This document shows, one piece after another, positions 58,930 through 64,000 of a stretch of DNA of 64,000 bases. This stretch comes from Myxococcota bacterium. GTDB lineage: Bacteria; Myxococcota_A; SURF-8. The stretch spans positions 3,712,001 through 3,776,000 of the forward strand of contig OZ223209.1 in the NCBI GenBank assembly GCA_965140415.1. Direction: 5' to 3'. Under the pieces are notes generated by a model that was not told where the DNA came from, ran no database searches, and saw only the letters and a program-made list of their open reading frames with translations. The position numbers were made by a program, and so were the translations under genes. Position 1 is the first letter of the stretch, and each line of letters begins with the position of its first letter.

Positions 58930-58994
58930 CAAACTAAATGCATACCCAGCGGGGGGACGGTGGGACCATTTTCCCGATGATCGAGGAGCGAGGC

Positions 58995-59696
58995 ATGCTG
59001 GCCAACATTATCAGCGGTGCGCTATTGGGCATCGATGCCTACAAAGTCAATGTCGAAGTGGACATGGCGATGGGGTTGCCGCAAATGAACGTGGTCGGTC
59101 TGCCCAACGGTGCGGTGCGCGAGAGCAAGGAGCGGGTGCGCAGCGCCATCAAAAACGCCGGTTTCCCGCTTCCTTCCCGGCGTGTGACCATCAACCTGGC
59201 CCCGGCGGATATTCGCAAGGAAGGCGCGGCCTTCGATCTGCCGATGTCCATCGGCATGCTGGCCTGCGCCGATGTCATTGCCGGGGACCGGCTGAGAGAA
59301 TACATGGTGCTGGGCGAACTGGCGTTGGACGGTGCCATCAAGCCGATTCGCGGGGCGCTGTCACTGGCAGCCGCCTGTCGCGATCAGGGATTGCGCGGTG
59401 TTTTGTTGCCTCACGAAAACGCGCGCGAAGCCTCTGTCGTGGAGGGCATCGACGTGATCGGGGTGCACGATTTACCCCAGGCCATTCGATTTCTAAACCA
59501 GGTGGAAGCCATCGAACCGGAGCAGGCTTTGTCGCTTGTGGATTCCGACCGGGACGAAACCGCGCTGGTGGATCTGGCGGATGTCAAAGGCCAGGAGCAT
59601 GTCAAGCGCGCGTTGGAAGTCGCTGCGGCGGGTGGGCATAACACACTGCTGGTCGGTCCACCCGGAAGCGGGAAAACCCTTCACATGGGCTCATGA
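58995..59696 (+). pseudogene. comM: 5' fragment of comM/yifB (Mg-chelatase-like AAA ATPase), interrupted
   Basis: [77 protein letters not shown], then a stop 5 codons later. The family is normally about twice this long. Confidence 0.88.
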
Positions 59697-59843
59697 TCTT
59701 CGGACCATGCTGCCTGAGGCGGAACTGCCTGAAATGTTTTGTATTTGCACCCTAAGTTTGTACGGTTGTTAGTTGTTCCCTTCTCCCCTGAAGCAAATCC
59801 AATGTATCAAGTGTTTGTTCTAAGGAAAATACACGGTATATTC

Positions 59844-61418
59844 TTATTCATCCAGTGCCGCTTCAAGTTCCTCAAAAGCCTTGTCAGCATTCCGAATTAT
59901 CATGTCCCTAACTTCTTCACTGAGACCGCTACTAAGATCAGCAAAATCCTTAGATGGTTTTAATAGTTCTGCTAGAGCATAAACTGTATTTCCGTCAAAA
60001 TAGTATTCTCTAATAGTTGCCCGACGTAAAACAATATTGGTTGAGATATTTGTCATCTCCTCGATTGATAATTCTTCACCACTTTCTGTGTCACTACTGT
60101 ATGTTTTTACCATGCTGCTTACTTTTGATTGCAGTGTTGAGGCAAGATCTGCTTTCGCCATTTGTGCAGCCATCCTCATTCCAATGGGTTTGGGTAATTG
60201 AGCTGAGGATACTCCTACCGCAAAAATAGCATTGCTTTCTTCTGATAAAGCTTTTGTACCTGATTTAACCCAAGTTGGGGGTGTATTGCCTTCACGAACC
60301 AATGCATTAAGAGTTTTAGGTGCTATCGGCAAAGCAGTGTAGGGCTCTACAGGCTCATCTCCCCCTCTCCAAGGAATTTGATAATAACCAAGAAATGTAC
60401 AAACGGCACTTCCGTCCTCTAGAGTTCTACATTTTTCATCATAGACAACTAAAGAATCTTTATCTATTTTCCCTTCTGTCACCATCTGCATGATTGATCT
60501 GAAATCGTGTGTCGCAGATGTTTTGTCATCAACAGATTTGGATGATCTTGATATGCTGTCTTGAAATGTCACCCACACCCCATATAGGCGTTGTGTTACT
60601 TCCTTTATTAAATCTGCAAAAGCTCGTTCCCTGGCTAACATTAGGCGTGAACTGCGAGTCATACTGTCATTCGCGTAGCCATAGCCATCAACGAATATCT
60701 TACCTGTCTCAAGATATGAAGATCCTCCGATTGCTGCCTGTAGCCTTTGAAACAATTGTTGATCAAATTCATGCTGTACGATATTTGCATTTATTCCGCA
60801 CTTGAAGTCCTTCTCTGAAAGCTTTTGATTTACTACCAAGGATCCGCTTACTCTTTCACCGGAAGCTAAACTAAAAGGGTTTAACGATACATTGTACTTA
60901 GATCTAGTTCGTAGGTTATTATTGTTTTCCTTAGGTGTGACTTGGTTAGACAACTCAAAAGTTGATGATGAGGCTATATCACTTCTGGTGTTTAGAGGGG
61001 TGCTTGAAGAACTGGATAGCAAGTGGACTGATTGTTTAAGTTTATAATTCTTGTCCTGCGAGAGATACTTCCTCTCTTGTGAGGGATTAATCTCCTTGTG
61101 TGTTGTATTATTCCCATCGAAAGTCGAGGCATAAACATAGCCCGGAGAGTACACTGTGAGATCAAGGTCAGACATACCAACATTGCTATAATTATACGCA
61201 GTAATCAAATAAACGTGACGCTGAGGTTCAACTTCTAATGCAAGATGCCAGACTTCAATCTCAATTTCCTGTCTGTTAAAGTAGTTCTGTATCTGGATGG
61301 TAATTATTGCTGTAAAGAAGGTGGCCAGAATAAAAAGAACTACCTTGTTTGATGCAAACCTTAATAGTGTCTTTCGGGGTGAATTCATTATTTCTTGAAA
61401 CTTACTTAACACTTGCAT
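59844..61418 (-). CDS. Membrane-anchored protein with two LPP20/FlgP-like domains
   Basis: SD GAGGAGG before ATG 61418; N-terminal TM; GYGYA..LMLARERA..D...LYGV.V; PPTWV...IFAVG..A...AKADLA...YALAEL..NADKAFEEL. Confidence 0.7.
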   Translation of the reverse strand: MQVLSKFQEIMNSPRKTLLRFASNKVVLFILATFFTAIITIQIQNYFNRQEIEIEVWHLALEVEPQRHVYLITAYNYSNVGMSDLDLTVYSPGYVYASTFDGNNTTHKEINPSQERKYLSQDKNYKLKQSVHLLSSSSSTPLNTRSDIASSSTFELSNQVTPKENNNNLRTRSKYNVSLNPFSLASGERVSGSLVVNQKLSEKDFKCGINANIVQHEFDQQLFQRLQAAIGGSSYLETGKIFVDGYGYANDSMTRSSRLMLARERAFADLIKEVTQRLYGVWVTFQDSISRSSKSVDDKTSATHDFRSIMQMVTEGKIDKDSLVVYDEKCRTLEDGSAVCTFLGYYQIPWRGGDEPVEPYTALPIAPKTLNALVREGNTPPTWVKSGTKALSEESNAIFAVGVSSAQLPKPIGMRMAAQMAKADLASTLQSKVSSMVKTYSSDTESGEELSIEEMTNISTNIVLRRATIREYYFDGNTVYALAELLKPSKDFADLSSGLSEEVRDMIIRNADKAFEELEAALDE

Positions 61419-62088
61419 GTACCTCCTCAAATAGGAATTCCCGATCCTCTCCATGATGCGCCCATCTATGGCAGTTTGGACATAATGCAACGGCATTTTC
61501 AACCGTGTCCTCCCCACCATTTGAAAGCCATACGATGTGGTGAACCTCAAGGAAAGGTTTGCCGGATGTATCAGTGAACGGCGCAGGTCGACCACACAAT
61601 CCGCAAATGCCATTGGCCTGGTCCAACACCCATGCCACGACTTGAGGGTCTCGCTGATATGCGGCCCCTGAAGTCGTGCTCTTTTCGGGTTGCCGGTTCC
61701 CCTGAGGCTTACTTTTCAAGCCTCTTGCCTGAACCCGCCTTACCCGTTCTTTAAGTAATTCATGGTCAGAAGTTGGCAAGTGATCGTCGGGTGACAGAAG
61801 CCCCGATGATTCCGCAGCCGCTATAGCACTTCCCCTCAAAGCCTGTTGCAAATTTGGACGAGGCTTATAACCTTGGATCCATGGCAATCCGGCCTCTTTT
61901 AAGACGGCACTGATATTCATGAACTTGAATTCGACCGAGCCTTTCGACCGCTTTGATAAGATACCATCACGTAAGTTCCGGTTGATGTCCGCTTTCTTGT
62001 ACTTGCTTCCATCCAGTTCCATGCGGAGCATTTCGAAATAGGCGGCTACAACCGCATCAACTTCTTTATATGACCATGGTTCAGGCAT
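61402..62088 (-). CDS. HNH endonuclease (McrA-like C-terminal HNH)
   Basis: YQRDPQV..WVL..ANGICGLC...APF....PFLEVHHI.WL..GGEDTVENAVALCPNCHR..H. Confidence 0.9.
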   Translation of the reverse strand: MPEPWSYKEVDAVVAAYFEMLRMELDGSKYKKADINRNLRDGILSKRSKGSVEFKFMNISAVLKEAGLPWIQGYKPRPNLQQALRGSAIAAAESSGLLSPDDHLPTSDHELLKERVRRVQARGLKSKPQGNRQPEKSTTSGAAYQRDPQVVAWVLDQANGICGLCGRPAPFTDTSGKPFLEVHHIVWLSNGGEDTVENAVALCPNCHRWAHHGEDREFLFEEVHASVK

Positions 62089-62167
62089 ATTCAGTTCCTG
62101 GTCGGCAATGAATTCCGTTGTTCGATTCCAGGGTTGTATGCTACCGTAACAGCATCATAATTCGCAA

Positions 62168-62905
62168 GTGAAGAGTGTTGGAATGAAACCACAAAAGTTT
62201 ATCCCACAAATCCTTCTAGTGATTGTGGTTTTCGCTTTCCTCCTGTCTTATGCCCACGCCGACGAACCCTCCACCCCTCTATGCACCGTCGTAAAGGTCA
62301 TCGACGGCGACACCCTCGTCGCCCAGTGTCCCGGCAAGAATTCCGAAAAAGTCCGGCTAATCGGCGTAGATACACCCGAAACCAAGCATCCATCCAAACC
62401 AGTCCAGTTCTATGGCCGTGAGGCATCGGCTTTCACAAAGCGCATGGCCGATGGTAAGCGAGTACGGCTGGAATTCGATCAGGCGTTCGCCGCAAAAGGC
62501 CACAGGGGCGTTTACGGACGGCTCCTGGCTTACGTCTATATCAAACAGTCGGACGGCACATGGTTCGATTTGAATGCTGAGCTAATCCGCCAGGGATACG
62601 CCCATGCCTATACTAGGTTTCCGTTCAACCGGATAGATGAGTTCCGTCAACTTGAAAGTGAAGCACGGAAAGCCAGTAGGGGCTTGTGGACTGAATCTGT
62701 TAAGCCGACAACTCCCGCCAGTAAGGTTAAACCTAACGGAAAGTGCCTGATCAAGGGCAACATCGGTAAAGGCGGGAAGAAGATATTCCATGTTCCTGGA
62801 GGCCGGTGGTACAAGCTAACCAAAATAGATGAAAGCCGTGGAGAACGGTGGTTTTGCACTGAAAAAGAGGCCGTCCAGGCGGGGTGGCGGAAGTCAAGTC
62901 AGTGA
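62168..62905 (+). CDS. Secreted thermonuclease (SNase) with a C-terminal IKGNI/Ada-like domain
   Basis: Signal peptide; VIDGDT, VRLIGVDTPE, YGRLLAYVY, N.ELIR.GYA, A....RGLW; CLIKGNI..KIFH.PG..Y......E.WFCTE.EA..AGWR. Confidence 0.9.
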   Translation: MKSVGMKPQKFIPQILLVIVVFAFLLSYAHADEPSTPLCTVVKVIDGDTLVAQCPGKNSEKVRLIGVDTPETKHPSKPVQFYGREASAFTKRMADGKRVRLEFDQAFAAKGHRGVYGRLLAYVYIKQSDGTWFDLNAELIRQGYAHAYTRFPFNRIDEFRQLESEARKASRGLWTESVKPTTPASKVKPNGKCLIKGNIGKGGKKIFHVPGGRWYKLTKIDESRGERWFCTEKEAVQAGWRKSSQ

Positions 62906-63067
62906 ATACTAGGGATACGCCTTTTTGTAGGGGCTTGATCCGGAATATTTCCCATACATTGCGGTGCAGATACGGGAGCATTCTTGGATAGAAATATCGG
63001 TATACAAGCAATTTAATTTGTAAATTTCAAATCAATAATATTGAAATGATACAATTCACTTGTTACG

Positions 63068-63547
63068 GTGAGATTTTATAACACTTCACAACATCAACAT
63101 TGGGACAGTAGAGAAAGTAGGTACAAGTTGGGAAATATTGCCAAAGAACTTAGAGAATTAGCAATCAAATCACGCCAGTCAGTTGCAATCCAAAAAGAAG
63201 TGCAGAGAGGGTATGAGTACCGAAAGCGACTAAAAGAAGAAGAAGCCAGGAAAACACGAGATAGGGAGTTAGTTGATAAATTCGAGCAAATGATTATTAG
63301 AAAGGCAAAATCCACTGCACAAAAGGCGAAAAAATGTTTTTGGATTACTTATTCTGATTTTTCAGAATTGGACGAGTTCTGCACTTACAAGAAACATTGG
63401 TTCTATGATCATAGAAAATCGTATTCTTTTTCTTTTCTAGGACATCAAGTTGCAAAAAGATTAAAAAAACAAGGATTCAAAATAAAACTTAAGGCATCAG
63501 TTGATGTTGATTACAACTATACCCCAACGATGCGGATAAAATTTTAA
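63068..63547 (+). CDS. Hypothetical basic protein (AT-rich)
   Basis: 159-codon ORF in AT-rich DNA with no recognisable family; start uncertain. Confidence 0.55.
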   Translation: MRFYNTSQHQHWDSRESRYKLGNIAKELRELAIKSRQSVAIQKEVQRGYEYRKRLKEEEARKTRDRELVDKFEQMIIRKAKSTAQKAKKCFWITYSDFSELDEFCTYKKHWFYDHRKSYSFSFLGHQVAKRLKKQGFKIKLKASVDVDYNYTPTMRIKF

Positions 63548-63848
63548 ATCATCGTGACGCCTGAATATTGAATCTGGTCATCAAATTATTAGCTTGCCAA
63601 TATCGTACAGATTTAAGGTATTCCTACATTTTGATATTCCCCTCTTTTAGTGGATACTCGGCTATCCTGTCAAGGATGCCCATTCTCCGACCGTAAACAG
63701 CCTTTCGGTCGCTCTTTTCTAATGTTGCCAGTCTCGGTCAAAGAATGCGATACAGGGCAAATTCTGAGCCATAGAGCCTGAGTAGGTTAGCCGAATCCCC
63801 TCTACGGAGTCATGGGGGCATTTCCTGGATGTACGGGGATGCCTGTAC

Positions 63849-64000
63849 AGCTTCATCCCCACGGGTGTGGGGAATACGAATCCTGTTGAAACTGTGGGAC
63901 AAATTGAACCGGTTCATCCCCACGGGTGTGGGGAATACCTGATACGCGGCGAATTCAACCACAGGTCGTTGCGGTTCATCCCCACGGGTGTGGGGAATAC
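63849..64000 (-). CRISPR. CRISPR array, type I-E-like 29-bp repeat, trailer end, truncated by the window edge
   Basis: CGGTTCATCCCCACGGGTGTGGGGAATAC at 63910-63938 and 63972-64000, degenerate copy AGCTTCATCCCC... at 63849-63877; spacers of 32 and 33 bp. The reverse strand ends ATGAACCG like the I-E crRNA 5' handle. Confidence 0.95.

Follow-up and report, generated by a model that had tools for sequence, protein, structure and literature searches.

Genes for Mg-chelatase/ATP-dependent proteases (ComM/YifB) are the target of 12.4% of predicted site-specific large serine recombinases (LSRs), and competence genes are enriched among LSR targets (Durrant et al. 2022, PMC10083194). Wolbachia prophage WO (sr1WO group) uses an LSR to enter the magnesium chelatase gene of its host, and pieces of that gene flank the element (PMC9203015). 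In Acinetobacter baumannii, comM (MgCh domain) is interrupted by AbaR/AbGRI and by islands bearing CBASS or Zorya, and the benefit proposed for these elements is that they are less often removed by transformation (PMC11472951). The present work concerns a comM gene cut in two in a metagenome-assembled genome (MAG) of a Myxococcota bacterium (GCA_965140415.1, here G000), whose contig OZ223209.1 (G000:C1) is a single contig of 5.98 Mb. The stretch analysed, called the window, comprises 64,000 nucleotides (G000:C1:3712001-3776000); five-digit positions below are those of the window and seven-digit positions those of the contig. An insert of ∼53.46 kb separates the two parts of comM. Very probably, it is an integrative island that was inserted by its own LSR homologue, an enzyme with threonine at the nucleophile position, and that carries a mosaic of defence genes. 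The island itself follows the published pattern; what is new is the threonine-type integrase clade to which its recombinase belongs.

The 5′ part of comM (58938..59696, plus strand) encodes 252 amino acids (aa), comprising a complete ChlI domain (PF13541, 1.9e-44) and the Walker A motif, followed by five element-encoded codons and a stop. The Mg_chelatase domain (PF01078) is matched at positions 1-37 of 207 only. The cut falls inside the Walker A codons, and directly downstream the GC content drops from 0.62-0.63 to 0.385-0.41; a first-pass annotation of the window had reported both the stop at Walker A and the change in composition, and both hold. A genome search with PF01078 and PF13335 located the remainder of the gene on the same strand, at 3825123-3825974, where the 3′ part (3825135-3825998, plus strand) begins MLARRLPTILPD. 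The halves are complementary, covering positions 1-37 and 33-206 of PF01078, respectively, and the whole-genome search with these two families returned no second comM copy. The first-pass annotation had proposed looking to the right of the window for the 3′ half of comM, a recombinase and cas genes, and all three were found there, the recombinase being of the large serine type.

The boundaries of the island were defined by comparing five junction pairs with 11 empty sites. The attL junction (AGCGGGAAAACCCTTCAC) lies at 59667..59684 (plus strand) and attR (CTGCGGGAAGACCATGCTG) at 3825123-3825141. The two core copies are separated by 53,456 bp, and the island runs to a far end at 3825127, with 4.3 kb of its 53.46 kb (59672..64000) inside the window. 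In G000, attL and attR have only GCGGGAA(A/G)ACC in common, so the duplicated core that had been anticipated is very short, as expected for such a recombinase. Across the five genomes, the GG of the Gly codon is the sole dinucleotide common to all attL/attR pairs, and it is present at that position in 11 of the 11 empty sites read. A short shared core containing GG fits a 2-bp crossover, which the junctions would place at 59670-59671 (plus strand), in the Gly codon preceding the Walker A Lys.

As G000 is a MAG (completeness 93.7%, contamination 3.0%), a chimeric join might fake the split of comM, and the first-pass annotation had itself raised a misassembly at about 59,680. Such an error is disfavoured because a separate 10,028-nt short-read contig from public run X1, possibly G000's own source sample, bridges attL with no difference over L001 1-5939. 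The halves of comM are, moreover, collinear and in frame, the ends are typical of the element, and the same architecture is seen in five genomes. We regard an assembly artefact as barely credible. As to excision, contigs of runs X1 and X2 compared over 20 kb had, among the loose ends and joints listed, none that fell at the junction, rare forms being invisible to contigs.

Relatives were surveyed in a set of 41 genomes and in a wider sample of 301 Myxococcota genomes, close inspection being limited to genomes with at least two comM matches or a weak best match (5 + 27 genomes). The N-terminal half of comM was found in 41 of 41 genomes, and comM in 293 of the 301 (E ≤ 1e-12). Intact comM genes, as had been suggested for comparison, exist in G001, G003 and G004 of the same family as G000 (open frames of 534-544 aa, that of G001 reading as a normal 511-aa ComM) and in G009, a congener of the island-bearing G006. 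In G005, also of this family, the P-loop region is intact and comM is split further downstream. The same Walker A codon is occupied in at least 5 of the 301 genomes, G000 included: G006 has a 36.7-kb insert with the halves in the same order, G120 has an insert of ∼54 kb, and in G211 and the same-family G002 the halves lie on two contigs.

At both junctions, the element-side sequence is conserved among G000, G006 and G002; in G211 and G120 the conservation is weaker. Open reading frames (ORFs) of at least 60 aa from the G000 island were compared by blastp with the whole G006 island, 27.6 kb of that of G120, and the 18.2-kb G211 contig that carries the LSR homologue gene. The LSR homologue was the only G000 ORF matched in all three. 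Part of the Dam-like methylase of G000 is shared with the G006 island only, its small resolvase with those of G006 and G211, and the cargo is otherwise unrelated; a 143-aa ORF that overlaps the start of the LSR gene shows no conservation. This unrelated cargo, together with IS3 and recombinase debris and a mosaic GC content (segments of 0.37-0.53; island 0.454, genome 0.524), speaks for the idea that the 53 kb is an accretion of several elements or of rearranged host DNA, the MacAB/two-component genes and CRISPR-Cas having been added after a smaller LSR element. Such growth would be compatible with integration by the LSR homologue rather than opposed to it. A single attL and a single attR, with ends typical of the family, enclose the whole insert, and no internal copy of the att core was noticed in a repeat scan of the first 6 kb. 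As an explanation of the locus, we consider accretion improbable.

The recombinase gene (3811224-3813308, plus strand) is intact and encodes 694 aa. The domains of the protein are, in order, a resolvase domain (PF00239, 7.4e-18, residues 10-157), a recombinase domain (PF07508, 2.9e-21, 205-309) and a zinc ribbon (PF13408, 2e-6, 324-385), with an additional MerR-type helix-turn-helix at the C-terminus, and its predicted fold (pLDDT 81.7) matches the full-length SprA, PhiC31 and Bxb1 integrases with probability 1.00. The N-terminus reads ...TAFYARRTRED..., giving the motif Y12-A-R14-R-T16, in which T16 aligns (HMMER) with the catalytic Ser of SPbeta SprA and of TnpX. Where the LSR family has Y-x-R-x-S, this homologue has Thr in place of Ser. 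Judged by homology, the protein is a member of the superfamily that departs from it in the name-giving residue.

The same Thr is present in the G006, G120 and G211 proteins and in every close homologue that has its N-terminus, and the other four LSR genes of G000 have Ser. Of 1.84 billion representatives scanned in full with HMMER, 59 matched at E ≤ 1e-30. Y-x-R-x-T occurs in 42 of the best 150 matches listed (all at E ≤ 1e-21), P0073 among them having been read by eye; four nearby representatives (P0065, P0070, P0093 and P0094) have Ser, and further out the usual Y-x-R-V-S-T is found. A FastTree tree was built from 119 rows, sequences of at least 430 aa with a recognisable N-terminal motif. 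In this tree, which gives local support only and has several branches flagged as long, the rows with Thr come together in a single clade (44 rows, 42 Thr and 2 Ser; SH-like support 100), with P0070 (Ser) as its sister. P0138, the sole 'Thr' row outside the clade, is a pattern artefact on a truncated protein. Clade members are 26-53% identical to the query. T16 is invariant in 35 of 35 aligned members, as are Y12, R14, Q30, R64, R85, R89 and R92, where mean column identity is 33%. These active-site residues are treated as the equivalents of Y6, R8, Q19, R68 and R71 of resolvase, the numbering being mapped by motif and the correspondence in part presumed. All four Thr codons (ACC, ACG, ACT and ACA) are in use across members. 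A scan of genome contigs for Thr-clade genes gave three loci, the closest (50% identity) at the G006 island coordinates and the others at 25-26%, while a metagenome scan with a 12-row alignment yielded five short contigs (1.5-4 kb), none with comM in the vicinity; four of them show Thr and the fifth gave no motif match.

A C-terminal extension beyond the coiled coil is common to many proteins of the Thr clade (P0001 residues ∼575-690; G000 3812950-3813305). It consists of an invariant H-x-C-x-C-G-C-G followed by one or more helix-turn-helix (HTH) units of the MerR/HTH_17 type, and may serve additional site recognition, regulation or an inbuilt control of directionality. P0009 and P0010 do not have it.

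The conservation of Thr, the variety of its codons, the intact active site and the matching fold argue that it has been kept by selection in functional enzymes. The change to Thr would predate the clade, since it is found in 42 of 44 rows, with the other catalytic residues kept and the codons varying synonymously. The differing cargo and host families of the islands, and the empty sites in close kin, argue that the integrations occurred after this change from Ser to Thr. The two Ser rows within or beside the Thr rows suggest that the two residues are interchangeable. We think it probable, if less so than the origin of the island as a whole, that this monophyletic branch (at least 42 clusters at 50% identity, including P0009 from a cultured strain, Sorangium sp. 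So ce388 by its source name) consists of natural threonine recombinases: active integrases that would form a 5′-phosphothreonyl intermediate and that, in five Myxococcota cases, would be specialised on the comM P-loop Gly-Lys codons. To our knowledge, all characterised serine recombinases have a nucleophilic Ser, and these enzymes, if the reading is true, would be the first in nature to depart from the family-defining nucleophile. No description of a Thr nucleophile was found in the literature covered, which excludes most subscription journals and supplements, so that an earlier mention is possible; the word 'threonine' is absent from the main texts of PMC10083194, PMC9203015 and PMC2794168.

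Homologues of the recombinase at E ≤ 1e-30 were found in 7 of the 301 Myxococcota genomes (G000, G006, G120, G211, G076, G203 and G226). The P-loop is split in the first four, and in G000, G006 and G120 the LSR gene sits between the comM halves. The matches in G076, G203 and G226 are partial and lie on short or cut contigs.

Several observations weigh against integration by this enzyme. In G226, comM is intact (G226:C26 812-2302, residues 5-505) and a fragment of the LSR clade stands at a contig start (G226:C381 23-1471), which implies either a further target or a mixed population. Conversely, G002 has the split and no LSR at E ≤ 1e-30 in its assembly of 180 contigs. Characterised LSR elements usually carry the recombinase gene beside an att site; in G000 the distances are 11.8 kb to attR and 39.5 kb to attL, and in the sister elements the gene likewise has an internal position. 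None of the island's genes was recognised as coding for a recombination directionality factor. The presence of an insertion sequence (IS3) and of recombinase fragments suggests that the island has aged, and it may no longer be mobile. Finally, Olorunniji & Stark 2009 (PMC2794168) state that no reported mutant at the position equivalent to S10 is active, a Thr substitution not being named in the parts covered.

The loss of activity in these mutants is one reason to suppose that the Thr recombinases are dead relics or regulators, and that the islands were inserted long ago by Ser ancestors, or in trans by another recombinase, and are now fixed. G000 does have four other LSR genes, with Ser, and decay is visible in the IS3, the tyrosine-recombinase fragment and the resolvase fragment of its island, as well as in G006, where the region for the catalytic domain of the LSR homologue is interrupted by an ISL3 element, behind residue ∼93 of the 5′ ORF. 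Relics would sit poorly, on the other hand, with a Thr that persists across so divergent a clade beside its catalytic partners while its codons drift synonymously, with insertions of different cargo in different families, or with sites still empty in the congener G009 and in confamilial genomes; the Ser rows among and next to the Thr rows also suggest interchangeability. We hold the relic hypothesis to be unlikely, although it is the strongest of the competitors. The G006 island contains two ISL3 transposase ORFs (L031 17247-18548; L032 8634-9935) of equal length and with identical scores.

If the island was integrated by its own LSR homologue, the Thr enzyme would pair the attP of the element with the Walker A Gly-Lys codons of comM, acting as attB, and would cleave at the central dinucleotide, probably GG, with a covalent 5′-phosphothreonyl link presumably formed via T16. 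Insertion of the circle would then yield attL, attR and two comM fragments. The 5′ fragment would retain Walker A without the rest of the AAA+ domain, and ComM is predicted to be inactivated because two fragments remain and there is no spare copy. Both comEC and dprA are present in G000, and a lowered transformation is plausible because these two genes are there and a second comM is not. Loss of ComM may thus reduce the recombination of heterologous incoming DNA and thereby protect the island.

The G120 island differs from that of G000, which has no spare comM, in carrying, immediately inside attL, a complete and open copy of comM (L051 = G120:C449 1764-3278). This copy is 70% identical to ComM of the congeners G075 and G070, compared with 74-85% for the flanking host fragments; because of this lower identity, it looks element-borne, a spare for the broken gene. 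There are two further split points in comM. One, at about residue 348-356, is recurrent and is seen in G006, G008, G005, G067, G081 and G178, with inserts at G006:C1 1331123 to 1456548 (∼125 kb) and G008:C1 4034231 to 4142260 (∼108 kb), and corresponds to the NPCPCG stretch as read on the G001 ComM; G006 thus has two islands within one comM gene. The other, at about residue 313-320, is seen in G017 (G017:C36 190399 to 226055, an insert of ∼35.6 kb) and in G277.

The part of the island within the window is as the first-pass annotation had listed it: an HNH nuclease, a thermonuclease, two poorly characterised proteins and a type I-E array, of which the window holds the start. Closest to attL, on the minus strand, is an ORF whose longest frame is 589 aa (59844..61613; 513-589 aa depending on the start chosen). 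The real start is likely to lie further in, as the longest frame overlaps the HNH gene; by eye, this frame has one hydrophobic N-terminal stretch, and Pfam, PADLOC, NCBIfam, PHROGs and the protein Atlas offered no family for it. The HNH endonuclease (61402..62088, minus strand) resembles type IV methyl-directed restriction enzymes (PDC-S36 / mREase_IV), with scores of 7.8e-12 for PF01844, 6.1e-33 for PDLC05008 and 5.7e-32 for PDLC03656. The thermonuclease (SNase; 62168..62905, plus strand) looks exported and has a C-terminal 'sunset' domain (PF00565 9.8e-26; SNc+LTD 2.6e-32; NF051437 1.2e-11). An ORF of 159 aa (63068..63547, plus strand) gave no usable match in the same five collections. The window closes within the CRISPR array, of which it holds the first 3 of 16 repeats (63849..64000, minus strand).

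In the whole array (3775849-3776807, minus strand), a 29-nt repeat occurs 16 times, and the 15 spacers are 32-34 nt long. It adjoins a type I-E operon on the same strand (3776857-3785309) with cas2, cas1, cas6e, cas5e, cas7e, cse2, cse1 and cas3, and the system is complete, all eight cas families exceeding the Pfam cut-offs. Read on the minus strand, the repeat is one that we take to be like the E. coli I-E repeat. A deviating repeat marks the array end distal to cas2, and because this variant lies farthest from cas2, the leader is placed on the cas2-proximal side, the usual I-E layout. The sole Cas1 of the G000 genome is that of the island, and the island carries the genome's only CRISPR-Cas locus. 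At E ≤ 1e-10, none of 40 relatives (0/40) contained a match to its Cse1. None of the 15 spacers had a second match of more than 20 nt in the G000 genome. Queries of the array against INPHARED phages and PLSDB plasmids returned only what appear to be other arrays with similar repeats, and no protospacers.

Beyond the cas operon, family assignments are by Pfam unless stated, and rest on a scan of 60 ORFs of at least 60 aa; PHROGs was run on 19 ORFs without a family. A NACHT-like/FGE-sulfatase fusion of 902 aa (3786545-3789253, plus strand) and a STAND-like ATPase (AAA_16) of 1729 aa (3789339-3794528, minus strand) stand back to back (3786545-3794528), and neither matches any PADLOC model; the G006 island encodes a related FGE-sulfatase/Lcl_C protein of 1804 aa. 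These are followed by the IS3 orfAB (3794606-3795813, minus strand) and by a winged-helix protein (222 aa) with a reverse transcriptase (780 aa) at 3797522-3800638 (minus strand). The best PADLOC/NCBIfam matches of the reverse transcriptase are weak, below the cut-offs and scattered over several classes of defence reverse transcriptase, and Rfam gave no intron or retron RNA family, group II introns included, at this locus. Further along lie an excisionase-like HTH protein (PHROGs; 3801827-3802225, minus strand), a Dam-like methyltransferase (3803324-3805168, minus strand), a PQQ-propeller protein (3805481-3808114, plus strand), a short tyrosine recombinase (3808266-3808883, minus strand) and a 76-aa resolvase fragment (3809386-3809616, minus strand). 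After the LSR gene, and adjoining it, comes a TIR protein of 157 aa (Pfam, PADLOC; 3813311-3813784, minus strand). It matches PDC-S35 profiles only at positions 167-260 of 264, the C-terminal third, and may be a truncated effector. The remaining genes up to attR, all on the minus strand, encode an Lcl_C protein (3813960-3816374), a MacB/ABC/HlyD/OEP set forming a MacAB-TolC-type exporter (3817555-3822308), and a histidine kinase with a response regulator (3822366-3824440).

As far as family matches allow it to be recognised, the cargo is made up of known systems, namely I-E CRISPR-Cas, a type IV-like HNH restriction endonuclease, SNase, TIR, a reverse transcriptase and a methyltransferase, with no new defence system among them. 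The first-pass annotation had rated the locus its strongest candidate for a new system of defence or of competition between elements; this was not supported, the recognisable cargo being known and the spacers giving no match in the genome itself, INPHARED or PLSDB. Pfam found no family of phage structure (capsid, portal, terminase or tail) in the 60 ORFs, the PHROGs run giving only the excisionase-like HTH, and no family of conjugation (relaxase, coupling protein or type IV secretion). There was no Tn7-type transposase family in the Pfam scan, the IS3 orfAB being the sole DDE transposase. Rfam gave no match at the gathering threshold over 60 kb, and ARAGORN found no tRNA; a tRNA 3′ end apparent by eye near the right end of the island was dropped, having no counterpart in the genome.

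For enzymologists, the Thr clade offers a direct way to test if the serine-recombinase mechanism can work with a secondary alcohol. Marked by an additional HTH module and a highly conserved target, it also forms a distinct group of integrases to be considered for genome engineering. In Myxococcota, comM islands can supply the host's only CRISPR-Cas system.

The comparison with described elements can be drawn as follows. As in the LSR elements of Durrant et al. (PMC10083194), an LSR homologue would have put the element inside the coding sequence of a comM homologue; the G000 recombinase differs from theirs in its Thr, in its C-terminal Cys/His motif with MerR HTH, and in the internal position of its gene. 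Phage WO has structural modules, whereas the G000 island has none and carries defence cargo, and by Pfam it has the features of neither a prophage nor an integrative conjugative element. With the A. baumannii islands it shares the interruption of comM by mobile elements that often bear defence systems. AbaR moves by Tn7-like transposition, whereas the G000 island would use an LSR homologue, and it has another host phylum and other cargo (type I-E CRISPR-Cas). AbaR/Tn7-like elements are marked by TniA/B/C-type transposition genes and a target-site duplication; the G000 island, in which Pfam found no Tn7-type transposase family, is not of their kind. The enzyme itself is closest to SprA (9dxh), PhiC31 (9tep/9rah), Bxb1 (9iu2) and TnpX (2mhc), which it resembles in domain order, predicted fold and the catalytic Tyr, Arg and Gln residues; the tiny identity between attL and attR fits this likeness. 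It is set apart from all four by the threonine that replaces the nucleophilic serine, and by its extra C-terminal HTH module.

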